This document shows positions 16,894 to 62,890 of a DNA stretch of 64,000 nt, piece after piece. The notes beneath the pieces are model-generated. The model had not been told where the DNA came from and ran no database searches. It was given only the letters and a program-made list of their open reading frames with translations. The stretch's first letter is position 1, and the number at the start of each line of letters is the position of its first letter. A program made the position numbers and the translations under genes. Location of the stretch: positions 143,427 through 207,426 of the forward strand of contig JADJWH010000007.1 in NCBI GenBank assembly GCA_016716465.1, written 5' to 3'. The stretch is from Gammaproteobacteria bacterium. GTDB taxonomy: Bacteria; Pseudomonadota; Gammaproteobacteria; SZUA-140.

Positions 16894-19800
16894 TTGGTGC
16901 CATTGATTGGCGGATATAGCTCAGTAAGCATGAATTTTCTCCCGCTCGTCGCCCGAGGTTTCAGCCAGGCCGTCCTGCTGGCCGCCCTCACGCTGTTACC
17001 GTTGACGATCCCCCCCGCGGCGGCGGCCGCGAATGCGCGTGCCGATTTCAACGGCGACGGGCGCACTGACCTGGCGATCGGTGTTCCGGGCGAGGATGTC
17101 GGGAGCATCATCGATGCCGGCGCCGTACGGATCGTTTATGGAAGCGGCAGTGGGGCGCCGGCGGCGGGTACAGAACAGATCTGGCATCTGGACAGCGTCG
17201 GTATACCGGGTACGGCGCAGTCGGGCGATCATTTCGGTGCGGCCATCGCCAGCGGGGATTTCAACCGGGACGGTTATACCGACCTCGCGGTGGGTATGCC
17301 GAACAAGAACGGCAATCGAGGCCAGATGCTGGTCATGTACGGCAGCGGCGCGGGTCTCAGCGCGGCCGGCAGCCAGATCTGGGATCAGGGGGTGCTCGCC
17401 GATGACCCGGAAACAGACGACCGCTTTGCATCCGCGCTCGTGGCGGGGGACTTCAACCGGGACGGATACGACGACCTCGCCGTCGGGGTTCCCGGGGAGG
17501 ATTATCCCGGCATCGGGCCACCTGAAGCCAACCCGCCGACTCCCAATTGCGATCCCTGCGTCAATGCCGGTGTGGTCAATGTGGTTTACGGCGGCCCCAG
17601 CGGCCTGACGGCCACGCGGAACGAGCTTTGGCACCAGGATCGCGGCGTTTCCTACGACGGCTGGGTTGAGCCACAGGACTGCTTCGGTGCAAGCCTGGCT
17701 TCCGCGGATTTCAATGGCGACGGCATAGATGATCTTGCCGTTGGCGTGCCGTGCGAGAACACCGGCGGCGCGGACGTGCCATTTCCGAACAACGGCGCGG
17801 TGAGCGTGTACTACGGTTCGACCGGCGGTCTGACGGGTGTCGGAGCGCAATACCTGCGGCAGTGGGCGGAAGACGTCGTCGATTATCCCCAGGCCAATGA
17901 TGCCTTCGGTTATGCCCTCGCGGCGGGAGATTTCGATGGTGACGGCCGCGCCGATCTGGCGATAGGCGTGCCGGGCGAGGATAGCGGCGGTATCAGCGAT
18001 GCCGGTGGCGTGGCGGTCTTTTACGGGGCTGCCGGCGGCCTGATCAGAAACGAGCTGTGGGGGACACACAGTCCGGATGTCATCGGCGACCCGGTCGCCA
18101 ATGCGCACTGGGGTTATGCGCTCGCCGCGGGAGATTTCAACCATGACGGGCGAGCTGATCTTGCGATCGGGGCACCCGGTGATAGCGTTTCGGCCATTAT
18201 CGAGGCCGGGTCCGTAAGCATACTTTACGGTGCCCCCACCGGACTGAGCGGCCAGTCCAGCCAACTGTTCACCCAGGATACCCCCGGCGTAGACGAGGTT
18301 GCCGAGCAGGTTGACTGGTTTGGACATACGCTCGCCGCTACCGATCTCGACGGCGATGGCGCTCAGGACCTCGTCATAGGCGTGCCATTCGAAGACTACG
18401 GATTCACCGTGGATGCGGGGGCCGTTCATCTCCTCTATGGCTCGGCAGGTACGGGGATTTCAGCAACCGGGAGCCGATTACTCGGTCAGGATGGACCAGG
18501 CAGCCAGGACATCAGCGAGGCAGGGGATCAATTCGGTGGTCGTCTGGTTCCGCGCCTCAACGGCGCGGCGCCCTGGCCGGATGAACCGACGAACTACATG
18601 ATGACGGCGCCGACCGCGGTGAATCTCACCGCGGAGGGTTCGGCGGACTGGGTTCATTGGGGCCGCGCCAGCGTAACAGCGCCGGATCGAAAATCCGGTG
18701 TTGCCCCCCAGATTGGCAACCTGTTTCCTCTGGGCGGGGCGAGTCCCGCGATCACGAACCAGACGAGCTCTGCCTATGCCTGGAGCGACGGCGCGCCACT
18801 CGCGACCCATTCCGGCACCAAATCCGGCGTTCGGGTGTTCAGCGCCGGCAATGGCTTCCAGTTCAGTGTGCCTGCAGATACGGGCTTCCGGACCCTCAAG
18901 GTCTATGTGGGAGCGAATGCCGCAAGAGGCCAATTTACCGCCAGTCTGAGTGATGGCAGTGCTCCGGCGTACACCACCGCGGTCGATCGCCGCAGTGGAC
19001 GCACCAGTCAGGTCATCACACTCAACTACCGCGCGGCATCGCCCGGCCAGACCCTGACCGTCAGCTACGTTTTGAACACGCTCTACCAGGCCAATCTCCA
19101 AAGCTGGATAACCCTCGAGTCGGCGGCACTGCGTGTTGCCGGGGATGATCGCCCGCCGATGCTTGAGCCGATCGGAAATCGAACCTTGCAGGAAGGCGAA
19201 CTGCTGAGTCTGGCCGTGGTCGCAGTGGATTCCGATGGTCCGGCCCCGCTGAGCCTGAGCCAGACCAATACGCTGCCCGGCAGCCCGAACATCCTGACCG
19301 ACAATGGCAACGGCAGCGGCACGCTGAACTGGACGCCGGCCGCGGGCTCCGCGGCCGGCAGCCCCTATTCGGTCACCGTCACGGCCACCGACGGCGCCGG
19401 GACCTCCTCGAGCACCAGCTTCACCGTGACCGTTCTCCCGGTCAGCTCGCACACGCCTTACGGCGGGAGCGCGTGGCCGATCCCGGGGATCATCGAGGCG
19501 GAGAACTACGACCTGGGCGGCTCAGGCGTGGGCTATTTCGACACCACGGCGGGCAACGCCGGCAATCTCTACCGCAGCGACGGCGTCGACATCTGGGTCG
19601 CCTCCGACGTGGATGGCGCCTACATGGTGGGCCAGACCAGCGCCGGCGAGTGGCTGGACTACACAGTCAACGTGGCAGCCGCCGGCAGCTACACGCTCAA
19701 TCTGCGGGTGGCGACGGCGGTGAACAACAAACGGCTGCGTATCCTGATGAACGGCGCCGACATCACCGGCTCGATCGCGGTGCCCAATACCGGCGGCTGG

Positions 19801-20694
19801 ACCGCCTGGACCACCCTCAGCCGGACGGTGACGCTCAATGCCGGCCAGCAGACCCTGCGCCTGCAGGTCGACAGCGGCAGCTTCAACGTCAACTGGATCG
19901 GTTTCACCTCCGGTTTCTCCAATGCCGCGCCCACCCTGAGCCCAATCGGCAATCAGACGGTGAATGAAGGGCAATTACTTGTCGTGCCGGTCTCGGCCAC
20001 TGACGCCGACGGTCCAGCCCCGCTGAGCCTGAGCCAGACCAGTACGCTGCCCGGCAGCCCGAACATCCTGACCGACAATGGCAACGGCAGCGGCACGCTG
20101 AACTGGACGCCGGCCGCGGGCTCCGCGGCCGGCAGCCCCTATTCGGTCACCGTCACGGCCACCGACGGCGCCGGGACCTCCTCGAGCACCAGCTTCACCG
20201 TGACCGTTCTCCCGGTCAGCTCGCACACGCCTTACGGCGGGAGCGCGTGGCCGATCCCGGGGATCATCGAGGCGGAGAACTACGACCTGGGCGGCTCAGG
20301 CGTGGGCTATTTCGACACCACGGCGGGCAACGCCGGCAATCTCTACCGCAGCGACGGCGTCGACATCTGGGTCGCCTCCGACGTGGATGGCGCCTACATG
20401 GTGGGCCAGACCAGCGCCGGCGAGTGGCTGGACTACACAGTCAACGTGGCAGCCGCCGGCAGCTACACGCTCAATCTGCGGGTGGCGACGGCGGTGAACA
20501 ACAAACGGCTGCGTATCCTGATGAACGGCGCCGACATCACCGGCTCGATCGCGGTGCCCAATACCGGCGGCTGGACCGCCTGGACCACCCTCAGCCGGAC
20601 GGTGACGCTCAATGCCGGCCAGCAGACCCTGCGCCTGCAGGTCGACAGCGGCAGCTTCAACGTCAACTGGATCGGTTTTTCGGGCATTAACTAG
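16894..20694 (+). CDS. Secreted FG-GAP (integrin-alpha-like beta-propeller) protein with two cadherin-like Ig modules and two CBM6 carbohydrate-binding modules
   Basis: Signal peptide (the start could instead be ATG 16930, MNFLPLVARGF...). At least seven FG-GAP repeats (DFNGDGRTDLAIGVPGED-type). Ig modules (PIGNQT..EG..L...V.A.D.DGPAPL.LSQT). CBM6 modules (PYGGSAWPIPGIIEAENYDLGG...NTGGW..W.T....V.LNAGQQTLRLQVD.GSFNVNWIGF). Confidence 0.8.
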   Translation: MVPLIGGYSSVSMNFLPLVARGFSQAVLLAALTLLPLTIPPAAAAANARADFNGDGRTDLAIGVPGEDVGSIIDAGAVRIVYGSGSGAPAAGTEQIWHLDSVGIPGTAQSGDHFGAAIASGDFNRDGYTDLAVGMPNKNGNRGQMLVMYGSGAGLSAAGSQIWDQGVLADDPETDDRFASALVAGDFNRDGYDDLAVGVPGEDYPGIGPPEANPPTPNCDPCVNAGVVNVVYGGPSGLTATRNELWHQDRGVSYDGWVEPQDCFGASLASADFNGDGIDDLAVGVPCENTGGADVPFPNNGAVSVYYGSTGGLTGVGAQYLRQWAEDVVDYPQANDAFGYALAAGDFDGDGRADLAIGVPGEDSGGISDAGGVAVFYGAAGGLIRNELWGTHSPDVIGDPVANAHWGYALAAGDFNHDGRADLAIGAPGDSVSAIIEAGSVSILYGAPTGLSGQSSQLFTQDTPGVDEVAEQVDWFGHTLAATDLDGDGAQDLVIGVPFEDYGFTVDAGAVHLLYGSAGTGISATGSRLLGQDGPGSQDISEAGDQFGGRLVPRLNGAAPWPDEPTNYMMTAPTAVNLTAEGSADWVHWGRASVTAPDRKSGVAPQIGNLFPLGGASPAITNQTSSAYAWSDGAPLATHSGTKSGVRVFSAGNGFQFSVPADTGFRTLKVYVGANAARGQFTASLSDGSAPAYTTAVDRRSGRTSQVITLNYRAASPGQTLTVSYVLNTLYQANLQSWITLESAALRVAGDDRPPMLEPIGNRTLQEGELLSLAVVAVDSDGPAPLSLSQTNTLPGSPNILTDNGNGSGTLNWTPAAGSAAGSPYSVTVTATDGAGTSSSTSFTVTVLPVSSHTPYGGSAWPIPGIIEAENYDLGGSGVGYFDTTAGNAGNLYRSDGVDIWVASDVDGAYMVGQTSAGEWLDYTVNVAAAGSYTLNLRVATAVNNKRLRILMNGADITGSIAVPNTGGWTAWTTLSRTVTLNAGQQTLRLQVDSGSFNVNWIGFTSGFSNAAPTLSPIGNQTVNEGQLLVVPVSATDADGPAPLSLSQTSTLPGSPNILTDNGNGSGTLNWTPAAGSAAGSPYSVTVTATDGAGTSSSTSFTVTVLPVSSHTPYGGSAWPIPGIIEAENYDLGGSGVGYFDTTAGNAGNLYRSDGVDIWVASDVDGAYMVGQTSAGEWLDYTVNVAAAGSYTLNLRVATAVNNKRLRILMNGADITGSIAVPNTGGWTAWTTLSRTVTLNAGQQTLRLQVDSGSFNVNWIGFSGIN
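19237..20678 (+). repeat. Direct tandem duplication with a 774-bp period inside the FG-GAP/CBM6 gene; 636 bp are perfectly identical (19269-19904 equals 20043-20678)
   Basis: Aligned by eye at offset 774. Two mismatches in the first 32 bp, then no differences to the end of the CBM6 module. Each unit encodes a partial Ig module plus a full CBM6. Confidence 0.9.
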
Positions 20695-20847
20695 CTCAAC
20701 TGGATTCAAATCCCCGGAATTTTGCCCGATACTCTCTGCATAGACACAGCCTCAAGAGCGCGTCAATTCCGTGGACAGCACCGGGTTTGGGTCGCGATAG
20801 CTTCGTTGGGGCAGGATCATTTTCGATAATTTAGCGGGACAATCGTG

Positions 20848-21789
20848 ATGTCGACCAATGAGCAGCGGCTGATCTTTCTGGGCGGGGCCCCCCGGTCGGG
20901 AACAACCTTGTTACAGAACATCCTCGATATGCATCCGGATATCCTGGGTGGTCCGGAGTTTCTGCATTTGCCGGATATCCTGCAACTTCGCGGCAAGCTG
21001 CGCGACTCCGTTGCCCGCGGATGGATCGATCTGATCTGCTCAGCGGAGGAGGTCGATGAACGCATGCGTAATCTCATTGGCGGATTTCTGTTGACCTTCG
21101 CCGACAGGCACGGCGCCAAATTGCTCAGCGAGAAGACACCCGAGAATGTCCTGGTCTTTCCCAAATTGGTGGAGTTGTTTCCGGGTTCGAAGTTCATTCA
21201 CATCGTGCGCGATCCACGCGCAACCGTGGCTTCTTTGCTGGAAGTTGGGAAAAAGGCCCGGCGTAAAGGTGAAACCCCGGCGTTGTTCACACGTGACGCA
21301 CAGTCCGCGATCAGGCATGTGCGACGCTGCCTGGATTCCGGCTTTTCGGCCTCCCGTACCGCGCCGGACAAGGTGTATACGCTGGTTTATGAACGATTGA
21401 TCCGGGACCCGGAGGCCGAGGGACGCCAGATCTGCGGTTTCCTCGGTGTGTCATGGGCGCCGGAGATGTTACGGCCCGGCGAGAAGCGCCACATGGGTGA
21501 GAGCGCCATTACCGTCAACTCAAAAGAGATCTGGTATGACGCCAAAACGTACAACTCCAATCCTCAACCGGACAGCCTGGAGAAATGGCGCGAAACGCTG
21601 GCGGCGCACGAAAAGCTGATGATTGCGCGCGCGTTCTCCGATTCAGAGGATTTGAGCCGGCTGGGGTACGATTTCACGCTCAGCGATATGGGGACGATGG
21701 ATCGCGCGCGCGGCGCCGTGGTAACGTGGCTGCGGGGGCTCCGTCGCCGGCTCGGCGGCGGGCTGCGCCGGCTTGCCGGAGATAAATGA
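20848..21789 (+). CDS. Sulfotransferase family protein (Sulfotransfer_3-like)
   Basis: 5'-PSB P-loop LGGAPRSGTTLL near the N-terminus. IVRDPRATVAS 3'-PB-like motif. Confidence 0.8.
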   Translation: MSTNEQRLIFLGGAPRSGTTLLQNILDMHPDILGGPEFLHLPDILQLRGKLRDSVARGWIDLICSAEEVDERMRNLIGGFLLTFADRHGAKLLSEKTPENVLVFPKLVELFPGSKFIHIVRDPRATVASLLEVGKKARRKGETPALFTRDAQSAIRHVRRCLDSGFSASRTAPDKVYTLVYERLIRDPEAEGRQICGFLGVSWAPEMLRPGEKRHMGESAITVNSKEIWYDAKTYNSNPQPDSLEKWRETLAAHEKLMIARAFSDSEDLSRLGYDFTLSDMGTMDRARGAVVTWLRGLRRRLGGGLRRLAGDK

Positions 21790-21797
21790 GCGATGTT

Positions 21798-22205
21798 TCA
21801 GTATTCCGCGTCGATCCCGTATCCACGGCCATCAGTAGGTGCCACGAGGAAGCGGACGTGCATCATTCCACCGTCCTGCAGATGGATCTCGGCATCGACC
21901 TCGACCTTACCTTCGGTGGTCTCTCTTGCATCCGAGATGCTGAACGTCGCGCCTGCGTAGGAATTCAACAATACCTGGCCATAGCCCGGACTTTCCAGCA
22001 GGGACTGACGTTCCTTGCGGAAGTCGGGCGTGATGAACTTGCTCAACTCGGCCGTATTTCCGCTGATCAGGCCGGCCATGTATCCCTCGACCGTTGCGCG
22101 CGCCATGGATTCGGCGGTCGTCATGGGCGCGGCGCCCAGCGCGGGGTGCGCGGTGAAGACCAGGAGTGCCAGGACGGTTGCCGTAAATGGGTGCATCGAT
22201 CTCAT
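21798..22205 (-). CDS. Small secreted/periplasmic hypothetical protein (135 aa), co-oriented with and directly downstream of the giant gene
   Basis: Clean signal peptide MRSMHPFTATVLALLVFTAHPALGA. 38-bp gap to the upstream gene. Confidence 0.5.
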   Translation of the reverse strand: MRSMHPFTATVLALLVFTAHPALGAAPMTTAESMARATVEGYMAGLISGNTAELSKFITPDFRKERQSLLESPGYGQVLLNSYAGATFSISDARETTEGKVEVDAEIHLQDGGMMHVRFLVAPTDGRGYGIDAEY

Positions 22206-22242
22206 GGCTCGTGTGCTCTATGGGTTGAATATCGTCCGGATC

Positions 22243-25200
22243 TCAATTCTTGACCACGATCGCAATGTAATTTGCCGCGGCACCGGTCGCCGCGGCGTTG
22301 GCGCCTCCTAGGAGGATGGTCCCCGACGCATTGTCCTTGCGATAGAGCTTCATCTGCGGCGTGGACGGGTTGCTGGTGTAGATCCGCAATCCGGAATCCA
22401 CGAATCCGGAGGATAGCCAGGAGGGCAGCGTGGCGGCATTGGCATCATACGCCACGTACAGCGTCGCGGGCGCCGGAATGTTGAACGACAGGTAATCGCT
22501 GTTGGCGGCGTTCTTGTCCAGATTGCCGGTCAGTATCCAGCGCCCATGCGCGAGCGCCGCCGGAATCGGGCTGTTGATCGTGTAGGTTTGATCGACATAG
22601 TACGGATCGCCGGGCTCCATCAGGTTTTCTTTGTAGGGAAGCGGGCTTGCGCACGAGCCGCCCTGGGACAAGCGCAGGCACAGGGCGCTGGCGACGAATG
22701 GCGGCGTCGAGTTTCCGGTCAGCGCGTTGGCGATCAGGCGCGCCATGACCTCGTAGCCGAGCGCGTTCGGATGAAGGTTGGTGGCGTACAGGTAGAATTT
22801 GTTCTCGCTGCCGAGGAAATAATCGTACAGATTCGCCCCCAATTGTCGGTCCGTGAGCTCATTGGCGATCACGGCATTGTATCCGTCACGAATCAGCAGA
22901 TTGCGTGCATGATTCGCCGGATCCGCATAGGGCGCCTGGAATGGATCGCCGAACCGGGGCGGCGCCCGGTTGACGACGACGGTTTTTCCCGCGGCGGTGA
23001 GCTGGTTGATAGTTGCCTGCAGATTACCCTTGAAGGTGCCGTTGCACTGGCTGCCGTTGCAGCCGAGGCCACTCGGTGTGAAGAGCGTTCCATTGGCGTC
23101 GTTGACGCCGATGGTTACGATGAATCTGTTGGAATCCGGATAGCCCTCGAGCACCGAGGCGAGCCTGTCGTTCAGCAAGTTGGCCGACGTGTCGCCGGGG
23201 ACGCCGGCGTTGTTCACGAGCGACGGATAGGGTTGTTGCGAGTTGAGCAAATCGGTCAGGGCGGCTTCATAACCCTGTGAGGAGATCACCCAGCCGCCCT
23301 GCGAAATACCGTCGCTGGAAGTGCTGTCGTCCAGCCCGTTGGTGATACTGTCGCCGAACGCCACATGGTTATCGCCACCGGAGCTTATGGAGGTATTGGT
23401 GTCGCTGTCCAGCTGGACATTGAACTGATCGCGCAATACCGCGCTCAATTGATAGACCCCCTGGGCCGGCGCGGTGCAGGAGGCGGTGAACAGGCCGGCA
23501 TGTCCCGTCTCGCTCGCGACGGTACAGGAGTTGAGCAGGCTGTTCAGCTGGAATTCGACCGTGGCTCCGGCGGGCTTGTTCATCACGACGGCGCCCACGT
23601 CGAACGTGGTGCCCGGAGAGACCGAGTAGGACACGGGCGCGGATATCGCGACGGCCGGAACCGTATCATTGTCCTGGATGTAAACATCGTCGAAGGCGCA
23701 CTGGTCGCGGCAGTAGAGTCCCACGGTGCCGCTGCTCAGGCTCGTGTCGTAAGCCCCGAACAGTTTCTCGCCGTTGACGCTGGCGATGACGACCGGTCCC
23801 TGGGCCTTCATGGTGACGTTCAGGGGCGTGCCGGTCAGATAGCCCCTGGCGTTTTTGGCCAGGGTATGGAAGGTGCCTCCGGCGCGGGTTTCGAGCCGTG
23901 CGAAGCCGTTCGCCGCGCTGTACGAGAGACGCGTATAGCTGTTGTCGTTGGGGTTGACGCGGATCATGACACCGATGTCCTGTCCCGAGGCCGCCGTCGG
24001 TAGAGCTTTGACGCTGAATGTGTAGTCGCCGAGCGTTATCCCTGGGACCAGATAGGAATAGGTGCCGCGATGGTATCCGCCCTGCAGGGCGCTTCCATTG
24101 AAGCCGACGAAGTTGTTCTGGCGGTATTCGCCGGCGGTCACGCCCCAATTCGGGTCTTGTCCGGAGTCATTGACGACCTGCCAGTTGGTGGCGAAGCCGC
24201 TGGAGAAATCCTCGGAGTAGGGAAGCGGCAACGCTCCGGCCGCCGTGAAGCTGATCCAGTTGACGTTGAAGCTGCCGTTGTCGATCTGGAGGCGCATCAC
24301 CTTCTGGCCCGCGCTGCCGATGTTGACCGGGATGCTGACGGTCTGCCAGGTGATCCAGCCGCCGGTATTCGGAATGGCGATCGGTCCGGCGATATCGTTG
24401 CCATTCATCAGTACGCGCGCCTGTTTGCCATTGGCCGCGGTCGCCACCCGCAGGTTCAACATGTAGGAGCCGGCGCTTTGCACCTCGACCGTGTATTCCA
24501 GCCACTCACCCGCCTTGGTCGAGCCCACCATATAGGCGCCGCTGACATCGGAAGCATTCCAGATGTCGACGTTGTCGCTCCGGTACAGATTGCCGTCGTT
24601 GCCGACGGTGGCATCCTGGTAAGCGATACCGGGCCCACCGAGGTCGTAGTTCTCCGCCTCTATGACCCCGGGGATCGGCCAGGGCGTGCCGCCATAGGGG
24701 GGCTGCGTGCTGGAAATGACTGTGACCTTGAAGCTCGCGCTGGAGAAGGCGCCGTCGCCATCGGTGGCCGTGACGGTGACCGAGTAGGGACTGCCGGCGG
24801 CCGCGCCCGTGGACGGCGTCCAGTTCAGCGTGCCGGTACCGTTGCCGTTGTCGGTCAGGATGAAGGGGTTGCCGGGCAGGGTGTTGGTCTGGCTCAGGGT
24901 CAGGGGCGCCGGGCCGTCGGTGTCGGAGGCCGAGACCGGCACGACGAGCGGCTGGCCTTCAGTTACGACCTGATTTCCGATGGGACTCAGGGTCGGTGGC
25001 AGGTTGTCGGTCACCGTGACTGTGAAGATCATGCTGGAGAAATGGCCGGCGCCGTCGGTGGCGGTAACGGTGATTGAATAGGGACTCCCGGCGGAGGAGC
25101 CAGCGGGAGGCGTCCAGTCGATGAACCCGTTGCCGCTGCCATAGTCCGTCAGGATGTTCGGGTTGCCGGGCAGGGTGTTGGTCTGGCTCAGGGTCAGGGG

Positions 25201-52016: not shown

Positions 52017-52023
52017 GCGCGTC

Positions 52024-53139: not shown

Positions 53140-53218
53140 TTTCTAAGTGTTTAAATAAGTAAATGTGCGTGTCTCTATTATAATGGCTGAACTTTGAAAT
53201 AAGAATATTTCTAATCCA

Positions 53219-54442
53219 TTGTCGAATCTACTATCAATCAATAATTATTATTACTTCCGCGGCGGTGCGGAAGCGGTATTTCTGAGGCAAAATGCCTTGT
53301 TTGAAAGTATGGGTTGGCGCGTGGCGCCATTCTCTATGCGCCATTCGAATAATATTGATTCTCCTTGGTCGGACTACTTTGTCGAGGAAATTGAGTTCGG
53401 ATCAGAATATTCCCTATGGGGGAAAATTCGGCGTGTTCCGAAGGTGGTTTATTCTCTTGAGGCGCGGAGAAGGGTGCGCAGGCTGCTTGATGTATTTCCT
53501 GCTGATATATGCCATGCCCATAATATTTATCACCATATCTCTCCATCGATATTGCATCTGATCAAGCAGCGTGGCATTCCGATCGTCATGACACTTCATG
53601 ACCTGAAGCTCGCCTGCCCTGCATATAACATGCTTGCCAATGACGGTATTTGCGAGCGCTGTAAGGATGGCCGGATATATAACGTCCTACGTCACAGTTG
53701 CATAAAAGGTTCAGTGACTCTGAGCGCGGTAGTCATGGCCGAAACCCTACTCCACCGAGCATTGAAAACATTCGAGCGGCACATAGACAGGTTTATTGTT
53801 CCCAGTCATTTTTATATGGCTAAGCTGGCTGAATGGGGTTGGGATAAGTCACGGTTTTTGTACATTCCCAACGCACTCGATGTGGAGACATTCAGCGTTG
53901 ATTATGTTCCAGGAAAATCATTTGTATATTTTGGAAGGCTAAGTCGGGAAAAGGGTATTTCGACCTTAATCAAGGCCGCCTCTATTGCTGGCGTGTCTTT
54001 GACGATTGTAGGGACTGGCCCTGACGAACACCTACTACGGAAACTCTCTAAAGATGAAGGGGCAGATGTTACGTTTCTGGGCTACCTGAAGGGGCAGAAG
54101 TTGCATGATGTTGTCCGTTCTGCCCGTGCGGTTGTGCTACCCTCGGAGTGGTATGAGAATGCGCCATTGTCTGTTATGGAAGCCTATGCATTAGGCAAGC
54201 CAGTTATTGGTGCCACGATAGGTGGCATCCCAGAATTGATACAGAATGGGATAACAGGCGCCACGTTTGAATCGGGTTCTATCAGAGAACTAGCGGAAAT
54301 ATTGGCCCGATTTTCCTGTCTTCCGGACTCGGATATGTCCAACATGGGGCATGCTGGACGTTCTTGGATAGAAAGGGAATTCAACATGGACCAGTATGGA
54401 TCTAGGATGCTGAGTTTGTATCGGGAGCTTGGAGTTCAATGA
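53219..54442 (+). CDS. Glycosyltransferase family 1 (GT4-type)
   Basis: N-terminal INNYYYFRGGAE. C-terminal LPSEWYENAPLSVMEAYALGKPVIGATIGGIPE. TTG start as in the ORF track. Confidence 0.75.
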   Translation: MSNLLSINNYYYFRGGAEAVFLRQNALFESMGWRVAPFSMRHSNNIDSPWSDYFVEEIEFGSEYSLWGKIRRVPKVVYSLEARRRVRRLLDVFPADICHAHNIYHHISPSILHLIKQRGIPIVMTLHDLKLACPAYNMLANDGICERCKDGRIYNVLRHSCIKGSVTLSAVVMAETLLHRALKTFERHIDRFIVPSHFYMAKLAEWGWDKSRFLYIPNALDVETFSVDYVPGKSFVYFGRLSREKGISTLIKAASIAGVSLTIVGTGPDEHLLRKLSKDEGADVTFLGYLKGQKLHDVVRSARAVVLPSEWYENAPLSVMEAYALGKPVIGATIGGIPELIQNGITGATFESGSIRELAEILARFSCLPDSDMSNMGHAGRSWIEREFNMDQYGSRMLSLYRELGVQ

Positions 54443-54494
54443 ATATAGTTCTAATAGCAGAAGCTCGCAACGGTGAAAAGGGTTTCAGTAATTG

Positions 54495-55616
54495 ATGCGC
54501 ATAATGGTGCTAGGCCTTCGTGGGTTCCCTAATGTCCAGGGAGGCGTGGAGCAACATGCTGAGCAATTGTATCCTTTGCTAGCTAAGTTGGGTTGCCACA
54601 TCGATGTAATTGCACGTTCACCCTATGTGCCGCGCGAGCTTCGGATGTGGAATGGCATTACTTTTCACCGATTATGGGCGCCAAGGATCAGGGGGCTGGA
54701 AGCGCTGATACATTCCTTGATCGGGGTATTCTATGCCGGCATCAAGAGGCCTGATATCTTGCACATTCATGCTGTTGGCCCTGCGATCATTGCGCCACTC
54801 GGTAGAGCGCTAGGACTTAGGGTTGTGGTCACGCATCATGGTCCGGATTATGATCGCGAAAAATGGGGAAGGTCAGCGCGTTGGTTACTTCGGCTAGGTG
54901 AGAAGTGGGGTATGCTCTGTGCGAATCAGAGGATTGTCATCTCCAAAGTGATTAGAAAGCTGGTGTTCGATAAATATCGTCTCGATTCAGTTGTTATCCC
55001 AAATGGTGTCACTCTCCCAAAAATTCCTGAGACCAAGGAAACGCTGGGGCGATTTTCGCTGGTTGCTAAGAGATATATTTTGTTGGTTAGCCGCTTTGTG
55101 CCAGAAAAGAGGCATCTCGACTTAATTGAAGCCTTTGCCATGTCCAGACTTTTGGATTGGAAGCTGGTGTTGGTTGGAGAGGTGGATCGCCGCGACAGGT
55201 ATTGCATGAAGGTGCTATCTTCCGCCGAGCAGATCCCGGGTGTGGTAATCACAGACTTTCAATTTGGCCAAGCACTACAGGAGTTATATTCGTATGCTGG
55301 TCTCTTTGTATTGCCATCATCGCATGAAGGGCTTCCGATTGCTTTGCTTGAGGCATTAAGCTACGGATTACCCGTGCTGGCAAGTGATATACCCGCCAAT
55401 CTGGAAGTCGGCCTTCCGGAAACTAATTACTTTCCCCTTGGGAATGTCGCCATACTCGCCGGGGTATTGTGCGAGCGGGCTGTTGAGCAGTCAGATGGCG
55501 CACAGCGGGAGAGGTTACGTGCATGGGTTAGTGAGCGTTATTGCTGGACAGAGGTGGCGCAACGTACATTGGATACTTATAAAAAAGTATTAAGAAGGTC
55601 TAAGATATATTGGTAG
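54495..55616 (+). CDS. Glycosyltransferase family 1 with N-terminal DUF1972-type domain
   Basis: MRIMVLGLRGFPNVQGGVEQHAEQL N-terminal signature. PSSHEGLPIALLEALSYGLPVLASD C-terminal motif. Confidence 0.8.
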   Translation: MRIMVLGLRGFPNVQGGVEQHAEQLYPLLAKLGCHIDVIARSPYVPRELRMWNGITFHRLWAPRIRGLEALIHSLIGVFYAGIKRPDILHIHAVGPAIIAPLGRALGLRVVVTHHGPDYDREKWGRSARWLLRLGEKWGMLCANQRIVISKVIRKLVFDKYRLDSVVIPNGVTLPKIPETKETLGRFSLVAKRYILLVSRFVPEKRHLDLIEAFAMSRLLDWKLVLVGEVDRRDRYCMKVLSSAEQIPGVVITDFQFGQALQELYSYAGLFVLPSSHEGLPIALLEALSYGLPVLASDIPANLEVGLPETNYFPLGNVAILAGVLCERAVEQSDGAQRERLRAWVSERYCWTEVAQRTLDTYKKVLRRSKIYW

Positions 55617-55717
55617 TTGCCTAGATCCAAAGCTTAAGAATAAGCTCTGGTCTGCGCGGTTATTCTGATGTGGTCAATCTCTAAGAGGAGCTATGTGAGG
55701 AACACCAAGGGGGTGTT

Positions 55718-57232
55718 ATGGGCCTTGTTTATCGATTTCAGAATAATAAAAAATTTTTTATAGAAAAAGGGCAGTCAGAAAAAAACCATATAAAAGTATT
55801 TTTAGGAAATAAACTATCTTCTGAGCATGATCCAACCGCAGATGGAATATGGGCGGAATGGGAGTGGGATGGGATTGAATTTAGATTTTCCAATGATAGG
55901 CTTGGATTTTACCCGATCTATTATTACAGTTATGAAGGAAAGTTTGGTATCTCCACGTCTATAATTGATCTTGTTGAGAAAGGGGACGTCCCTCTGGATC
56001 TCGACGATCAAGCAGTGGCATTCTTTATAAGAATGGGATTTTTTCTCGCTGATGACACCCCATTTAAATACATTCATAGTGCGCCACCAGCCTGTAGTAT
56101 TAAATGGAAAGATGGGAGAGTGGAGGTATTTACAAAAGGGTGTATATCATCACAGATAGCAGTCGGGTTATCTAGAGGGGCGGCGATCAAAGAGTATGGA
56201 GAGAGATTTCAGAATGCTATTAATAATACAACTCCTGATAAGAACGAAAAGGTTGGTGTCCCGTTAAGTGGTGGAAGGGACTCGAGGCATATTGCCTTGG
56301 CATTATATGAGGGTGGGGTAAATATACATTCGTTTTTGACTGTTAATAAGGGCCAGGATTTGACAGTCTCTCGCCAAGTAGCGCGTGAGTTGGGAATAGC
56401 TCAGTCAGTTATATATCAAAAGGGGTCTAGATTCGGGCAAGAAATTCGTAAGAATTATCTTACCAGTTTTTGTGCTGATGAGCATGCATGGGCTTTAGGC
56501 TTGGCCAATTCTATTGAAGAAAATCGATACACGGTTATTTATGATGGGATTGGTGGTGATGTTTTATCTGCGAGCGCGTTCCTCAATGAAAGGAGATTAG
56601 ATTTATATAGAAAGGAAAAGTTAGAGCAACTGGCAGAGCATCTAATGATAGACGAAGGTTATATACGATATTCTCTGCCAGAGGATTTTTATCAACGATT
56701 TAGCCGTGAACGAGCGGTCAATAAATTAACGGAGGAGTTAAGGAAGCATGTAAACACGCCAAATCCTGTTTCGCAATTCTTTTTTTGGAATAGAACGAGG
56801 AGAGAAATAGCATTATTGCCATGGGGTCTCTATAGGCGGGATATCAAAATTATGGCTCCTTATTTAATGAAAGGTATCTATGACTTTCTAACAGGATTGC
56901 CTGCCGAGTATATGCTCAACCGTCAATTCCATGAGCAAGCTATAAATAATCAATATGCTAAACACAGTCATATCCCTTATGAGGATAAGTCGGTATCTAC
57001 ACAAAGATTGTGTAAGCAATTTATTAAGACATTCAGAGAGGCGAGATTAATTAAAAACTATATTAATTATATTTCTATCTCTGGCGTCAAGAAATTTGAT
57101 ATCGGACTCGGGGCGCATTTCATAAAGCTGATTGGCATGTACTCAATGGCCCGCTCAAATGATCAATTCTTAAATTCCTTGAGAAGGATCATTTGGTTGG
57201 TACAGCTGTTGAGCCTACAGAAAATAAAGTAG
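55718..57232 (+). CDS. Asparagine-synthase-related amidotransferase (AsnB C-terminal synthetase domain; N-terminal domain lacks the Cys2 nucleophile)
   Basis: PP-loop VGVPLSGGRDSRHIA. N-terminus MGLVYRF... instead of MCGI. Similar to WbpS-like O-antigen sugar amidotransferases. Confidence 0.65.
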   Translation: MGLVYRFQNNKKFFIEKGQSEKNHIKVFLGNKLSSEHDPTADGIWAEWEWDGIEFRFSNDRLGFYPIYYYSYEGKFGISTSIIDLVEKGDVPLDLDDQAVAFFIRMGFFLADDTPFKYIHSAPPACSIKWKDGRVEVFTKGCISSQIAVGLSRGAAIKEYGERFQNAINNTTPDKNEKVGVPLSGGRDSRHIALALYEGGVNIHSFLTVNKGQDLTVSRQVARELGIAQSVIYQKGSRFGQEIRKNYLTSFCADEHAWALGLANSIEENRYTVIYDGIGGDVLSASAFLNERRLDLYRKEKLEQLAEHLMIDEGYIRYSLPEDFYQRFSRERAVNKLTEELRKHVNTPNPVSQFFFWNRTRREIALLPWGLYRRDIKIMAPYLMKGIYDFLTGLPAEYMLNRQFHEQAINNQYAKHSHIPYEDKSVSTQRLCKQFIKTFREARLIKNYINYISISGVKKFDIGLGAHFIKLIGMYSMARSNDQFLNSLRRIIWLVQLLSLQKIK

Positions 57233-57243
57233 CTTGACGATTT

Positions 57244-58215
57244 CTATTTGTGAGGCGGCTGGATTTGGCTGCTGCGAGCATAACGCAAATAGCCGAGGCT
57301 TCGCGCGAAAGAATTCTTCAGCCAGCGCGCCTGAACCTCGGGTGCCCGCATTTTTATATTTGGCCCTTCATCAGAGATGAGGTCGTTTCGCACATCGTGG
57401 AGTGTGAGCATTTTCATGATGCCCTGCAAATAGCCTGACTTTTTAATACGAAGAGCTACCAGTTCCTCCAATTGCGGATCATTGATCTGCTTATAGTAAA
57501 TAGTACGTAATTCTTGTGTGACAGCAGTCCGGTTGTTATTGGTTCTTTCTTCAAAATTGGCAGCAGAACTCTGATCTTGAAGGTGTACTCGCGCCGACTC
57601 GTTTCCAAACAGAAGATGGTGTTTCTTGTGCCAGAACTTCTCTTTTCCCTCGAAATAAGGTATGCCTAAGTAGCAACAAATATTCTCAAGCACTGCTGGG
57701 TCTCGTGTATAGTCGGAGTAGGGTACGGAGCGCCAGTCAGCTATCTTGGTTGTATATAGACGAAAATAGTTTATCCACGAACTCTCCCATTTGTCGTAAC
57801 CTTTGCCCCGCTTTTTTAATGAATGCGCGTATTCTAGAGGGGTTTTCCATATAACAATATGCTTGGTTTCAATGCCGGACTTTCTAAGAAGCTTCGACTG
57901 ATAGTTAATCCAAAAGGGATCCTTGCTGGAATCAATGATAAACCTTACCTCAGGTTTAAGTTCGAAGATCTTGTTATAGAGATTCTGCTTCCCCGCGGCG
58001 CGCACTTGTGACCAGAAGTTACAATTTATTTCTCCGCATCCACATATTGGATCTATATGGTGTGCGCGATAGGGGTGAATCAGTGCATTGACTTCCCCGG
58101 TTGAGAACCCAGCAGGATCATTTCCCAGCGTCATGTCAAAAAAGGTAGAACCACTAAATGCGGTTCCCCCAACAAAGATCAGTTTTCTTTCTGTCATTTG
58201 AGTTATTACCATCAA
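57244..58215 (-). CDS. P-loop sulfotransferase-like protein
   Basis: N-terminal LIFVGGTAFSGSTFF loop and overall size resemble Stf0/Sulfotransfer_3 proteins. Weaker motif match than the other five. Confidence 0.5.
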   Translation of the reverse strand: MMVITQMTERKLIFVGGTAFSGSTFFDMTLGNDPAGFSTGEVNALIHPYRAHHIDPICGCGEINCNFWSQVRAAGKQNLYNKIFELKPEVRFIIDSSKDPFWINYQSKLLRKSGIETKHIVIWKTPLEYAHSLKKRGKGYDKWESSWINYFRLYTTKIADWRSVPYSDYTRDPAVLENICCYLGIPYFEGKEKFWHKKHHLLFGNESARVHLQDQSSAANFEERTNNNRTAVTQELRTIYYKQINDPQLEELVALRIKKSGYLQGIMKMLTLHDVRNDLISDEGPNIKMRAPEVQARWLKNSFARSLGYLRYARSSQIQPPHK

Positions 58216-58872
58216 TGGGGATGTTCTTTGGAGGGATATTTTTTAGATAAATCAGCCAGATTTTCCGGAGGCGCTGCCATGGTTGTACTTTTCTGGTTTA
58301 AAGTATTTTTCTATTAGTTTCGGCTGATTTATATGCACTGCATTTATGAGTTGGCGGAAATTGGTTATATAGATTTTTATGCATTTGTGAGGCATATGAT
58401 TATGTTACAGTTTGCTCGATTGGGTTCTATATTTTCTGTGTGGCATATGCGAGTGACTTGTGGTGCTCGATGAAACACAGCTTTGCTCTTGAAAAATTTT
58501 CCGCGATGTTCCTGTAGAGAAATTCGTTATAGATGGGTGGCAAATAATCTCGATAAGGCAGAGCATTGGCGATAACGATCAGAATATCTGTTATTTGAAT
58601 CGGAAGGAAACTTCATCTGGCCAATATAGCGTACAGGAAGGATAAACGCCCCTTTTCGTATCCGTCAACCAGTTATTCACGGGGGGAGTGTTTAGATAGT
58701 TCATTGTTGTTACATCCAAGAAACGGCAACGGGAGCCGAATGTGAGGTGATGACGTACTTGCTTCAATGATGAGTCTGGGGCAGGGTCGGATAGTATTCG
58801 TATGCAGCCCGAGCCAGTTCAAGGAGCTAGTTGTGCTTGTATTATGAAATACCCTTTGAAGCTCCAACAGAC

Positions 58873-60342
58873 TCAGGGTTCATATCCTGGGGGCAGATAT
58901 GGGAAAGCAAATGTTCCTGGTGGCCCGAATGTATCAAGTGCCTGGTGAACCTCTTCAAGAGTCGGCGGGTTATTGTGCCAAGGGGTGTCCCATGATACAG
59001 CAAGATTATGGACGGGCATTATGCCGGGTGGGTCTTCGCCGGCCCGGCCTAGCCCAGAATTCCTCTTTGCCGGATCTGTCGCTTTTGGCGAGCCCGAGAG
59101 CGCCCATACAATATGGGAAAATGTCTGTGGCACAGTTACATTGCTGTAATTCCATGGATTGGGAATGCCAGCTGCAAAGAAAGTGGTTTCTCTCTGTCCG
59201 TTACTTTCAGTCGCCTGCGACAGAAATCTAATATCCTTCTGATAAACGCCATTCAGGTCATTAAACCTGGTCGCGCTAGTGAAATTATCTGTTCCCACCA
59301 TTTTCATGTCAGGGAAGTTCGCACCCATGTGTGGGTTGTTCATATATTGCCAGCGTATATCAAGCCCCCCCCCTACCAGGGTCGACTGTGTTACATAGAT
59401 GCCAGATGCCGCATAAATCTCTGCAATCTTTCTGTTAAGCAGGCTCATGCCATGATAATAGTCTGTTGAGTTGTAATCGCTGGGGAGATTACCTGACGGC
59501 TCCGCTTCTGGACAGCGTATAAACATGACCTTGTTTATATTGCCAGTTGCAACTAAATGGTCATACATTGCTTTGACAAAGATTAAAATCTCATCGATTA
59601 CATATGGCGCAGTGCCTCTGTTTCTTAGTCCTCTAGCATCAGGCCCAGAATATCGATAGAACTTGGGAACCCAATGTGACGTTCCATCAGTGCTCCAAAC
59701 GGCATCATACGGAGCTGCATTTAACCACGCCGGAGTGCTGGGACTGTTTCCCCACGAAACTACTCCTAGATTAAGTACCAGGAGCGCCCCTTCGTTTTGT
59801 ACTGCATTGATTTTAAATGCTGCATCAAGAAGGCTCCAATCATATCCCGGGTCAGTGTGATTTGCCGGATTAGAGGGTCTGATATTCTGGTTGGTGTAAT
59901 ATCTCCACATGCGTAAGGGAAATACTATCCCACCATATACCCCGGGTGGCCGATATGAGGCTTTGCGATTCGGGCTGGTGGTAAATAAGGCCTGCCACTT
60001 AGATTCCATGAGGGAAGGGGAAGGATTTTCTTCCGATGTATCCACCACGATGCCGGGGCGGAATTTCAAATTTGTTCCGGGGAATACTCCGGATTGGCTA
60101 CTTGATACATTTGCAGCAGAGGAATTGCTGGAAGCGGCACATTGAATCCCCTCCGAGTGTTCGATGCATATGTCCGTCGGCGTCGTCGGAGGAGCTGCTG
60201 GGGCCGCTCCAATCGAGCTTGCCAGTAGGAAGATCAGAAGATAGAGGGATTGTTTCAACATGATAGGTTTTGTGCTCGTATCTGGATAAACGAAGGGGTG
60301 TGCGTCGCGGCGCATGGATATGCTCATGTTCTTGTCATGCAT
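58873..60342 (-). CDS. Secreted hypothetical protein (low-GC), possibly a glycan hydrolase; co-transcribed downstream of the CBM6 lipoprotein
   Basis: Signal peptide MLKQSLYLLIFLLASSIGAA (an alternative start is at 60261). No motif recognised by eye. 20-bp gap to the upstream gene. Confidence 0.45.
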   Translation of the reverse strand: MHDKNMSISMRRDAHPFVYPDTSTKPIMLKQSLYLLIFLLASSIGAAPAAPPTTPTDICIEHSEGIQCAASSNSSAANVSSSQSGVFPGTNLKFRPGIVVDTSEENPSPSLMESKWQALFTTSPNRKASYRPPGVYGGIVFPLRMWRYYTNQNIRPSNPANHTDPGYDWSLLDAAFKINAVQNEGALLVLNLGVVSWGNSPSTPAWLNAAPYDAVWSTDGTSHWVPKFYRYSGPDARGLRNRGTAPYVIDEILIFVKAMYDHLVATGNINKVMFIRCPEAEPSGNLPSDYNSTDYYHGMSLLNRKIAEIYAASGIYVTQSTLVGGGLDIRWQYMNNPHMGANFPDMKMVGTDNFTSATRFNDLNGVYQKDIRFLSQATESNGQRETTFFAAGIPNPWNYSNVTVPQTFSHIVWALSGSPKATDPAKRNSGLGRAGEDPPGIMPVHNLAVSWDTPWHNNPPTLEEVHQALDTFGPPGTFAFPYLPPGYEP

Positions 60343-60361
60343 TGGCAGGTTGTTCTCAGTC

Positions 60362-62890
60362 TCAGATGGTCAGGGGGACCATGGTGCATGCGGGCATAGA
60401 CCAGTCTGAGATACCATCGGCATTATAAGCGCGAAGCTTAAAGCAGATATTATCCCCGGGTTTCATGCCTAAATCATACCAGGAGTCATACTGTATAGCC
60501 GGATTCACGGGGTCAAAGCTCCCGGCGAATGCCTGAATATTCGTGGTTTCGGTGGTGACCGCATTTTCGCTGGGGCCGAAATAGACGATATAGCCCTGTA
60601 TGGAATCAGAATTGGGTGACCAGGTGAGCGTTAATGTGGTGTTTGTAACATCAGCCTGATCATCTATGTTGCCAGACAGGATCTCGATCGAGTTGAGATT
60701 GAAGCTACCATTGTCCACCTGCATGCGCAGCACGTGCAGGCCGGCGCTGAGATTGACGGATTTCCTGACGGTCTGCCAGGTTTGCCAGCCGCCGGTGTTG
60801 GGGATGGCAATCGCGCCGGTAAGATCGCTGCCATCCACCAGGATGCGAGCCAGTTTTCCACTGTCGGCGGTGGCCACACGCAGGTTTATGGTATAGGTTC
60901 CGGTAGTGGTCACGTTGACGGTATATTCCAGCCACTCCCCGGCCTGGGTAGTGCCCACCATGTAGCCTCCGCCAATGTCGGTGGAGACCCAGATGTCCAC
61001 ATTGTCGCTGCGCAGATAACCGCCAGAGTTGCCGTTGGTAGTGTCGGAGTAGGCAACCCCGTCACCGCCTTCGTCGTAATACTCGGCCTCGATCAGGCCC
61101 GGAACCGTCCAGGGCGTCCCGCCATGAGGTTTTTGTAGGGGGTCAATGACTACCACCGGCGTCGTTTGCGTCCCATTGGTCTGTCCGCTGGAGCTGTCAG
61201 CCGTGATCTTGATCGAATTGAGGTTGAAGCTGCCGTTGTCGACCTGCACACGCAGGACATGCAGGCCGGATCCAAGATTGACGGATTTTCCTACGGTCTG
61301 CCAGGTTTGCCAGCCGCCAGTGTTGGGGACCGCAATCGACCCGGTAAGGTCGCTGCCGTCCAGCAGGACGCGGGCCAGTTTACCGTCTTCGGCGGAGGCC
61401 ACACGCAGGTTGATGACGTAGGCACCGGTGTTGACCACGTTGACGGTATATTCCAGCCATTCCCCGGTCTTTGTCGTACCCACCATGTAGCCACCGCCTG
61501 TATCGGTGGAGACCCAGATGTCCACATTGTCGCTGCGCAGATAGCCGCCGGCATTGCCGAGGGTGGTGTCGGAGTAGGCGACCCCGTCACCGCCTTCGTC
61601 GTAAAACTCGGCCTCGATCAGGCCCGGAACCGTCCAGGGTGTCCCGCCATAGGCTCGTTGCGCGGAGTCGGTGGCGGGTCCCACGGGGATACTGCTTATT
61701 ACCTGTTCCACAACCGCGGTTTCCTCGGTATTGGCCGGATTGAGGATTTCCGACATGGCATCGTCGAGCAAGCTGGTGTTGTTTGCCGCGGCCAGATTGA
61801 TGGCGATTTCCTGCGCTGTGCTGCCGACTTCAATAGTGGTGATGCTGGTCTGAATATCTGCGAGCCCCGCACTGGGGGCAATGACAGCAGCTACAGCGAG
61901 AGCGGTCTGTACGTTCTGCAAAATTTCCATGTTAACTGGAAGTTCCCCCGTTGTCTCGGTCGCGGTGGGCATAATCGCCTTGATCGAGTCATCCAGTTGA
62001 CTGGTGGCCGGAGCATTATTCACTTGCAGGTTATTGCTAAGGGCTTCAATTAGTACTTGCCCGGAAGCAACTGTTGCAGTTGCAGAAACTGTGGTGTCAG
62101 CCCCTGAGGCTCCCTTGCCATCGAGCACGCCATCCGTCATATCGGCGGCGAGGCTCTCAATCAAGGTGTTTTGAGTAACCTCACTATTGACGCTGGAAAG
62201 GGCGGAATAGTTCCTTCGAATTATCTCCGCGAGCACCTCGCTCGATTTGACGACGGTCGCGACATTCTGCTCGGTTACGGGTGTCGTGATTGGATTCGGC
62301 ATCTTCTTGGTATCCAGGCCGGCATTGAAGCCCGCAAGGATGTTCCGATTGGCCGTGACCAGATTCGCGGGGGTCAGGCCCGAGGGCATTTTCTGCGCCG
62401 TCTTCACGATCAGTGTGGAGAATGGGTTGATGTTCGCCGTGGTCTCCTGCGTGCTCATCACGGTGCTGACCATATTGAAGGTCGGCTCGGCATTGGTGAC
62501 CAGGTCGGTGCCGCCGCTGGAAGAGATCGTCACCGGGAATGCCGTGCCGGCGGGAATGTTGGCGGAGTAGCGGGCCTGGTAGTCGCTGTAGACCTTCGCC
62601 AGTTCCTGCCCTCCGGCGTCCCTGATGGTGATGGCGGCCCCGATCACGGGGCCATCGACGATGCTCCCGCTGATGGTGATCTGGGAATCGCTGCGCGATA
62701 CTCCCTGGATCGTGGCGGTTCCGGTTTGTCCGTTGCTGTCGTTTTCACCATTGGTGGAACCCAGGATGACACCGGTCTCATGGTTTTCGCCCGATGCTGA
62801 ATCATCCCCGCCTCCGCAGGCCGTCAGTGTGCCGACTAGAAATAATATGGAGGAGAGCGAGATCAGCCTGATCTTTGCGGGACGAAACAT
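60362..62890 (-). CDS. Lipoprotein with a roughly 450-aa low-complexity Thr/Ser/Ala/Asn-rich region, two CBM6 modules and a C-terminal FN3-like module
   Basis: Lipobox LVGTLTAC. CBM6 consensus twice (GGTPWTVPGLIEAE.YDEGGDGVAYSDTT.GN.GGYLRSDNVDIWVSTD). C-terminal WSPNSDSIQGYIVYFGP...CFKLRAYNADGISDWS. Confidence 0.75.
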   Translation of the reverse strand: MFRPAKIRLISLSSILFLVGTLTACGGGDDSASGENHETGVILGSTNGENDSNGQTGTATIQGVSRSDSQITISGSIVDGPVIGAAITIRDAGGQELAKVYSDYQARYSANIPAGTAFPVTISSSGGTDLVTNAEPTFNMVSTVMSTQETTANINPFSTLIVKTAQKMPSGLTPANLVTANRNILAGFNAGLDTKKMPNPITTPVTEQNVATVVKSSEVLAEIIRRNYSALSSVNSEVTQNTLIESLAADMTDGVLDGKGASGADTTVSATATVASGQVLIEALSNNLQVNNAPATSQLDDSIKAIMPTATETTGELPVNMEILQNVQTALAVAAVIAPSAGLADIQTSITTIEVGSTAQEIAINLAAANNTSLLDDAMSEILNPANTEETAVVEQVISSIPVGPATDSAQRAYGGTPWTVPGLIEAEFYDEGGDGVAYSDTTLGNAGGYLRSDNVDIWVSTDTGGGYMVGTTKTGEWLEYTVNVVNTGAYVINLRVASAEDGKLARVLLDGSDLTGSIAVPNTGGWQTWQTVGKSVNLGSGLHVLRVQVDNGSFNLNSIKITADSSSGQTNGTQTTPVVVIDPLQKPHGGTPWTVPGLIEAEYYDEGGDGVAYSDTTNGNSGGYLRSDNVDIWVSTDIGGGYMVGTTQAGEWLEYTVNVTTTGTYTINLRVATADSGKLARILVDGSDLTGAIAIPNTGGWQTWQTVRKSVNLSAGLHVLRMQVDNGSFNLNSIEILSGNIDDQADVTNTTLTLTWSPNSDSIQGYIVYFGPSENAVTTETTNIQAFAGSFDPVNPAIQYDSWYDLGMKPGDNICFKLRAYNADGISDWSMPACTMVPLTI

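Follow-up and report, generated by a model that had tools for sequence, protein, structure and literature searches.

Related CBM6 and Ig-like modules in four secreted proteins of a predicted sulfated exopolysaccharide locus: probably mostly old paralogues with local homogenisation

Four genes on contig JADJWH010000007.1 of an uncultured gammaproteobacterium, here called gA to gD, encode secreted proteins that carry copies of one carbohydrate-binding module of family CBM6, and gA and gB also share an immunoglobulin-like (Ig-like) module. The 64-kb stretch of DNA that was analysed as a whole is referred to as the window, and coordinates are positions within it. The locus raises the question of how these copies have evolved: in concert, by inversion or exchange between genes, or as old paralogues that have simply drifted apart. 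A preliminary description of the window had proposed concerted evolution across the whole family. We found that the nucleotide similarity between modules of different genes is mostly a product of protein conservation and GC-rich codon usage, and that homogenisation is local. It affects neighbouring modules of one gene, plus one exchange between gA and gB, and has been sporadic rather than continuous. The four open reading frames (ORFs) were all present where the preliminary description had placed them:

16930-20694, + strand: gA, secreted protein with a seven-repeat FG-GAP propeller and the tail Ig-CBM6-Ig-CBM6, from Pfam (NCBI uses the start at 16930; the longest ORF runs from 16894)
22243-29373, - strand: gB, secreted protein of 2376 amino acids with sulfatase and GDSL esterase domains, from Pfam
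43598-46324, - strand: gC, secreted protein with an N-terminal region without assignment, a CBM35-like module, CHB_HEX_C and three tandem CBM6
60362-62890, - strand: gD, predicted lipoprotein with an N-terminal domain without assignment, two CBM6 and an fn3-like C-terminus

All four proteins have N-terminal signal-like sequences, and gD also has a lipobox. Those of gA, gB and gD have exact matches among NCBI proteins. An iterated profile search of the six-frame translation of the window returned ten full-length CBM6 modules, one partial and divergent module and six Ig-like modules, with no CBM6 or Ig module outside the four genes:

19444-19923, + strand: CBM6 A1, in gA
20218-20691, + strand: CBM6 A2, in gA, ending 3 nucleotides before the stop codon
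28789-29268, - strand: CBM6 B1, in gB
25594-26073, - strand: CBM6 B2, in gB, the closest intergenic partner of the gA modules
24232-24711, - strand: CBM6 B3, in gB
44561-45037, - strand: CBM6 C2, in gC
44078-44551, - strand: CBM6 C3, in gC
43601-44068, - strand: CBM6 C4, in gC
61187-61666, - strand: CBM6 D1, in gD
60662-61141, - strand: CBM6 D2, in gD
45335-45634, - strand: partial, divergent CBM35-like module, in gC
19138-19449, + strand: Ig-like A1 (He_PIG/Big_9), in gA
19909-20223, + strand: Ig-like A2, in gA
28498-28809, - strand: Ig-like B1, in gB
25300-25608, - strand: Ig-like B2, in gB
25000-25311, - strand: Ig-like B3, in gB
24703-25014, - strand: Ig-like B4, in gB

Eleven CBM6 modules and six cadherin-like Ig modules had been claimed. 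Ten of the former are full CBM6, whereas the eleventh is the divergent module at 45335-45634, which matches CBM35 structures and which self-BLASTN does not align with any of the other ten. The count of six Ig modules stands, but their family is He_PIG/Big_9: Big_9 scored 50.3 bits in gA (cut-off 23.6) and 84.7 in gB, He_PIG 48.3 (cut-off 24) and 77.8, and Cadherin_5 was marginal (27.8 versus 26.5 bits) and found in gA only. A PDB sequence search with the Ig module gave nothing convincing (protocadherin-15 at E 0.0066). The Pfam model CBM_6 (PF03422) matched all four proteins at 139.9-235.9 bits, against a cut-off of 28.9, and CBM_35_2 also scored over its cut-off. The best solved match to a profile of the ten CBM6 modules was the CBM6 of CtXyl5A (PDB 2y8k, E 4e-36). 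The ten modules have 52 invariant alignment columns in common, and the conserved residues include E20, Y22, N115, W119, W122 and N148, which would be compatible with the loop-site (cleft A) pocket of CBM6 structures.

Identities between modules were obtained by self-BLASTN and codon-based alignments. The self-comparison did find nucleotide-level matches between genes, but nearly all intergenic pairs are 63-75% identical in codon alignment, well below the 85-90% that had been estimated by eye. A1 and A2 versus B2, at 82-85% identity and with a CBM6 synonymous divergence (dS) of 0.42, are the sole intergenic pairs that high. For most intergenic pairs dS is 0.7-1.7, which is near saturation, and the fraction of shared amino acids encoded by the same codon is 0.48-0.65, compared with 0.44 expected from codon usage. 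Because dS is near-saturated and same-codon use little over expectation, the intergenic similarity is mostly a by-product of conserved proteins written in GC-rich codons. The pairs with high same-codon fractions all lie within one gene except two pairs between gA and gB:

A1/A2, neighbours in gA: 0.99
A/B2, different genes, inverted: 0.78
C3/C4, neighbours in gC: 0.77
Ig B2/B4, one tandem array in gB: 0.76
D1/D2, neighbours in gD: 0.74
Ig A2/B2, different genes, inverted: 0.69

Under concerted evolution paralogues are expected to be closer to each other than to their orthologues, and related loci allow this to be examined. Module copy number differs between the window and three related MAG (metagenome-assembled genome) loci:

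Window: gA tail Ig-CBM6-Ig-CBM6; gB with three central Ig modules
L001 (SJ336, GCA_020845975.1), about 82% nucleotide identity to the window: gA tail Ig-CBM6; gB off the contig
L002 (ERZ27258551), about 76%: gA tail Ig-Ig-Ig-CBM6; gB partial
L003 (SJ243, GCA_020847075.1), about 79-81%: gA absent; gB with four central Ig modules

In neighbour-joining trees built on codon alignments, the window's CBM6 B1 pairs with B1 of L003 (bootstrap 99) and B3 with B3 (bootstrap 100), while Ig B3 pairs with Ig B4 of L003 (bootstrap 93) and Ig B4 with Ig B5 (bootstrap 89). Quartet site counts for these position-paired modules are 41-50 by position versus 7-12 by genome. The pairing with positional orthologues and the quartet counts speak against general concerted evolution and indicate that the position-paired gB modules have been independent since before the lineages split, with no homogenisation across the family. 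Paralogues are closer than orthologues locally, for A1/A2, the A/B2 block and D1/D2, and not family-wide.

The strongest repeat in the window, which the preliminary description had missed, is a perfect direct repeat of 636 bp in gA (19269-19904 = 20043-20678). It lies within a longer, nearly identical tract present in two copies:

19232-19904, + strand: 673-bp tract, copy 1, 99.55% identical to copy 2
20006-20678, + strand: 673-bp tract, copy 2, offset by 774 bp from copy 1

The region has the form X-R-Y-R-Z, where R is the 673-bp tract and Y is 101 bp long, and three mismatches are kept near the 5' border of the tract. The sequence ahead of the first R is about 49% identical to Y, and past the second R come the stop codon and intergenic DNA, with no resemblance to Y. 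With such flanks the repeat is not the product of a simple tandem duplication, as neither R-Y-R-Y nor Y-R-Y-R fits. Furthermore, Ig A1 and Ig A2 are unlike in their N-terminal thirds: that of A1 most resembles the first Ig in the L002 gA orthologue, and that of A2 most resembles Ig B2 and the L001 Ig. Taken together, the flanks and the unlike N-terminal thirds suggest that two older Ig-CBM units in gA were probably overwritten by one recent conversion tract.

In L003 gA is missing entirely: between the two sulfotransferase genes that flank it, 248 bp (L003 18834-19081) replace 3966 bp (window 16868-20833), so that gA is an accessory gene of the locus.

Tandem modules are also found in the other three genes:

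24703-25608, - strand: tandem Ig array B2-B3-B4 in gB, period 294 bp, holding an 88-bp perfect repeat
43601-45037, - strand: CBM6 array C2-C3-C4 in gC, period 486 bp, C3 and C4 80% identical in nucleotides
60662-61666, - strand: CBM6 pair D1 and D2 in gD, 83-86% identical in nucleotides

The perfect match described inside gB is real, and extends from 84 to 88 bp (24870-24957 in Ig B4 = 25458-25545 in Ig B2). A GENECONV-style permutation test over 45 CBM6 pairs and 15 Ig pairs gave p<0.0005 for A1/A2 and for Ig B2/B4, third codon positions alone included, and no recent intergenic conversion tract survived correction for the 45 CBM6 or 15 Ig pairs. In protein sequence, D1 and D2 of gD share 79% identity in the window versus 68-69% for the corresponding modules of three orthologues, and D2 in the window resembles the 'first-type' modules. 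Since the orthologues already possess two modules at 68-69%, the higher value in the window requires later homogenisation. The gene conversion that had been put forward thus found support, in that A1/A2, Ig B2/B4 and D1/D2 are homogenised and one exchange joins gA and gB.

This exchange is seen in a contiguous self-BLASTN match of 749 nucleotides at 84% identity between the CBM6-Ig block of gA and CBM6 B2-Ig B2 of gB. Between the gA block and the B2 block of the same genome dS is 0.49, as opposed to 0.91 between the gA block and its SJ336 orthologue (95% bootstrap interval for the difference, 0.19-0.74). The first value is also a little below the dS of 0.65 between B2 and its L003 orthologue (fraction of bootstraps at or below zero, 0.02). 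As the gA block is synonymously closer to gB B2 than to its own orthologue, the data support one older, non-reciprocal inverted exchange of about 750 bp between the convergent gA and gB, and the exchanged block would since have diverged by about 16%. We infer the direction and timing of the exchanges from such comparisons.

Could the inverted modules do more than exchange a block once? Recurrent inversion between the modules of gA and gB would swap the C-terminal tails of the two proteins and yield variant surface lectins. The genes are indeed convergent with stop codons 1.5 kb apart, but the distance of about 1.5 kb that had been given for the modules applies to the stop codons, the inverted homologous modules themselves being 3.6-5.7 kb apart. 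Inverted arms of 451-457 nucleotides, 85% identical, lie 4.9-5.7 kb from each other; crossing over in register between CBM6 A2 and B2 would leave both reading frames intact and each downstream gene behind a promoter-proximal partner, and the one past exchange between the genes is supported. Yet no inverted arm is more than 85% identical, and exact inverted matches between gA and gB reach 28 bp at most. For RecA-dependent recombination this length is at the lower limit for efficient pairing, and a divergence of 15% suppresses it strongly. Divergence of the exchanged block by about 16% likewise argues that the exchange is not ongoing. No integrase, invertase, resolvase or reverse transcriptase family was detected among the 43 window proteins scanned, a scan that covered ORFs from 150 amino acids upwards. 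The alignments of the relatives to the window are all collinear, L002 retains the convergent gA and gB, and no inversion is present in L002 or L003, the small sample of two relatives that span both sides of the gA/gB interval. Recurrent inversion is thus very unlikely. The related idea of domain shuffling or variation holds in so far as module copy number differs between relatives, but no inversion-driven swapping was seen.

An account by divergence without any exchange, in which all copies are ancient paralogues and the pairs of high identity are younger duplications, agrees with the near-saturated dS of most pairs, with same-codon use so close to expectation and with the pairing of positional orthologues across genomes, and for the adjacent C3/C4 and D1/D2 younger tandem duplications could suffice. 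It is nevertheless improbable, being already contradicted for A1/A2, D1/D2 and A/B2: the sharp borders of the gA repeat, with flanks that are about 50% identical or non-homologous, require more than a single tandem duplication, the gD orthologues stand at 68-69% where the window has 79%, and at synonymous sites the gA block has diverged less from B2 in its own genome than from the gA orthologue. The perfect repeats of 636 and 88 bp, or the second Ig-CBM unit of gA, could also have been made or smoothed by the assembler. The window derives from a MAG, bubble-popping can erase small differences between near-identical copies, and the L002 contig end inside a CBM6 module illustrates that such repeats trouble assemblers. 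Against this, three distinct unique contexts (X, Y and Z) require two copies, the three mismatches near the 5' border were retained, assemblers usually collapse repeats rather than create them, and related genomes independently show other architectures of the gA tail; we regard an artefact as rather improbable too.

We consider ordinary modular evolution the likely explanation: old paralogues in the secreted proteins of an EPS (exopolysaccharide) locus, with duplication, loss and occasional conversion, forming a tethering toolkit. Four secreted proteins carry copies of one CBM6, and gA and gB also one Ig-like module. Most copies would be old paralogues that have kept their positions since before the related lineages split. 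Ordinary homologous recombination would act on the repeats, so that tandem modules are duplicated, lost or partly homogenised by gene conversion, and once a CBM6-Ig block of about 750 bp would have been copied between gA and gB. The CBM6 modules would tether a secreted remodelling toolkit to the cell's own sulfated polymer, with the Ig-like modules as spacers; the toolkit would comprise the carbohydrate-type sulfatase and GDSL esterase of gB, the FG-GAP propeller of gA and the binding-only or unassigned domains of gC and gD. Tethering to the locus's own sulfated polymer is probable, ligand and role being predicted from the domains and their setting. The modules may be dedicated to one glycan, as had been suggested, which would fit the 52 invariant columns and the EPS-locus context.

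Several points weigh against ordinary modular evolution with local conversion as set out here. The comparison set is small, consisting of three related contigs, and the whole of gB is covered by L003 alone. The sequence is a MAG contig, in which an assembler can smooth near-identical repeats. The permutation test is inflated by the conserved Ig core, as cross-genome pairs also gave p=0 at columns 107-164; the shorter Ig tracts B3/B2 and B4/B3 were for this reason not relied on, and may reflect constraint. For A/B2 the quartet sites disagree (16 group by genome, 15-23 by position and 8-9 otherwise), indicating that the exchange was partial, or old and overwritten, and the neighbour-joining grouping of gA with the window's B2 has a bootstrap of only 53%. 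Finally, the ligand could be a foreign (dietary) polysaccharide instead of the organism's own EPS.

Family searches over the 43 predicted proteins assigned the window to an EPS locus, and on these assignments it is a predicted gene cluster for the synthesis and export of a sulfated exopolysaccharide. It encodes about ten glycosyltransferases of GT2 and GT4 and six sulfotransferases, of which one is a further Sulfotransfer_1 match and the others are:

16061-16870: sulfotransferase gene
20845-21789: sulfotransferase gene
34955-35899: sulfotransferase gene
38841-39845: sulfotransferase gene
46738-47751: sulfotransferase gene

Export and chain-length functions are represented by Poly_export, Wzz/GNVR, a tyrosine-kinase-like ATPase and an AAA ATPase, and further EPS genes encode an undecaprenyl-phosphate sugar transferase, an ABC-2 transporter, dTDP-sugar and other nucleotide-sugar enzymes and a C-methyltransferase. 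The best NCBIfam matches of the export genes are XrtA/PEP-CTERM families, each under its curated cut-off (296.5 versus 324.5, 255.5 versus 278.85, 143.3 versus 180 and 158.3 versus 230.65 bits), and the window contains no exosortase gene.

The gB protein consists of CBM6-Ig, an S1 sulfatase, an unassigned region, CHB_HEX_C, CBM6, three Ig modules, CBM6, a second unassigned region, a GDSL esterase and a C-terminal region. Its sulfatase domain (residues ~294-703; Pfam Sulfatase, 202 bits) has an intact formylglycine motif CSPTRAALMTGR at residue 343 (CSPTR; C/S-x-P-x-R pattern), and the nearest solved structures are S1_19 carrageenan sulfatases (E 2e-65). In the GDSL domain (residues ~2004-2214; Lipase_GDSL_2, 66.4 bits against a cut-off of 32.9) block I is intact, with FGDSITNG at residue 2007. 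The C-terminal 662 residues of gB gave no PDB sequence match. No catalytic domain was detected in gC by Pfam and sequence searches, and the N-terminal regions of gC and gD (in gD a domain of about 400 amino acids) gave no Pfam, NCBIfam or PDB sequence match.

One gD homologue, P0251 (479 amino acids), has the N-terminal domain and the fn3-like C-terminus without CBM6, and in other gD homologues discoidin (F5/8 type C) or He_PIG modules take the place of CBM6. A genome-collection scan with gA found no relative, and a metagenome scan with a sulfotransferase alignment returned a single 1.7-kb contig, which lacks the modules. The same alignment found 17 loci in genomes, mostly distant and without modules; two of them are L001 and L003, another (L009) carries a single Ig module at the end of its contig, and the distant MAG L010 was the one informative locus. 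There, sulfotransferases occur together with ASPIC/UnbV FG-GAP genes and with two CBM6-GDSL esterases whose domain arrangement differs. Because a gD homologue without CBM6 exists and the CBM6-GDSL esterases are rearranged in L010, the modules appear to behave as portable cassettes over long time scales.

A Logan contig (SRR21707659_46543; 8891-12747 versus window 60140-64000) is 100% identical to the window from 64000 to about 62520, and its identity then falls sharply to about 70-86% inside gD, near codon 120. Past gD its genes differ from those of the window and encode a 403-amino-acid protein without assignment, an rve transposase and a GT4. The pattern suggests that another strain in this population has a different allele of the EPS locus, with a recombination breakpoint inside gD; it does not look like module shuffling. 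Such locus replacement is familiar from capsule and O-antigen loci. In L002 the contig ends at 17159-17308 inside a CBM6 module of the gB orthologue; repeats of this kind break short-read assemblies, so copy numbers taken from MAGs need care.

Directly downstream of gB, on the same strand, a 135-amino-acid gene (21798-22205, - strand) with a signal-peptide-like N-terminus and without family assignment is kept in L002 and L003, and the 155-amino-acid ORF at 21786-22253 (+ strand) is probably spurious. Three ASPIC/UnbV FG-GAP (CRTAC1-like) paralogues lie at 29567-33801 and 36052-38154. The first two are in tandem, with 71-72% nucleotide identity across about 520 bp, and this gene type occurs again beside sulfotransferases in L010. 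The region from 46000 to 60000 has 42-47% GC, versus about 60% elsewhere in the window, and contains GT4 genes, a 450-amino-acid ORF without Pfam match, an asparagine-synthase-like gene and two ORFs without family match. This part of the EPS locus was probably acquired horizontally or varies between strains.

The arrangement resembles several known systems in part. Like the CBM6 modules of multi-modular carbohydrate-active enzymes, among them those of Clostridium thermocellum CtXyl5A (2y8k), of Cellvibrio mixtus cellulase B (CmCBM6-2, 1uxz) and of beta-agarase 1 (2cdo), with profile matches of E 4e-36 to 1e-8, the modules are appended in one to three copies to secreted proteins, there to catalytic domains. 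Here, however, the host proteins are encoded in a biosynthetic sulfated-EPS locus and not a degradative one, and the partners are a sulfatase, a GDSL esterase and an FG-GAP propeller instead of glycoside hydrolases. Near-identical tandem repeats of bacterial surface proteins and the cohesins of cellulosomal scaffoldins undergo intragenic homogenisation and copy-number variation by homologous recombination. The modules described here likewise include neighbours that are more alike than their orthologues and differ in number between relatives, but there is one near-identical pair (the gA units), the other modules being 63-86% identical, and no evident link to antigenic or phase variation. In common with shufflons and invertase switches, homologous coding segments are inverted within a few kb; unlike them, the locus lacks short identical crossover sites, its scanned proteins include no site-specific recombinase, and the relatives show no second orientation. 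Nothing relevant to gene conversion or concerted evolution of CBM6 came up in a search of the literature.

The clusters for synechan (xss) of Synechocystis (PMC8205485) and for the sulfated glycosaminoglycan-like exopolymers of Pontiella (PMC7356697) are, in their abstract-level descriptions, likewise EPS synthesis and export loci with several sulfotransferase genes. Set against those descriptions, the window comes from a gammaproteobacterial MAG, has XrtA/PEP-CTERM-like export genes and encodes CBM6-tagged secreted proteins that include a sulfatase.

As a module family, the cassettes are a textbook case of modular evolution in secreted carbohydrate-active proteins and reveal no new mechanism of variation. 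They do offer a small and clean data set on close relatives that vary in module copy number, and they flag repeat-rich genes in which MAG assemblies break or may smooth differences. The more interesting lead is where the modules are found: a little-studied kind of EPS locus, rich in sulfotransferase genes, in an uncultured gammaproteobacterium, with a CBM6-tagged secreted sulfatase/esterase of its own. We tentatively speculate, as a less likely possibility, that this is a CBM6 subfamily for the producer's own sulfated EPS, which would tether an extracellular editing toolkit, made up of a carbohydrate sulfatase fused to a GDSL esterase together with propeller and lectin-only proteins, so that sulfation and acylation are remodelled outside the cell, with duplication, loss and exchange of modules tuning avidity as strains swap alleles of the EPS locus. 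Should the CBM6 modules prove to bind the native sulfated polymer, they could serve as useful probes for sulfated EPS of bacteria and as a lead to its extracellular remodelling.

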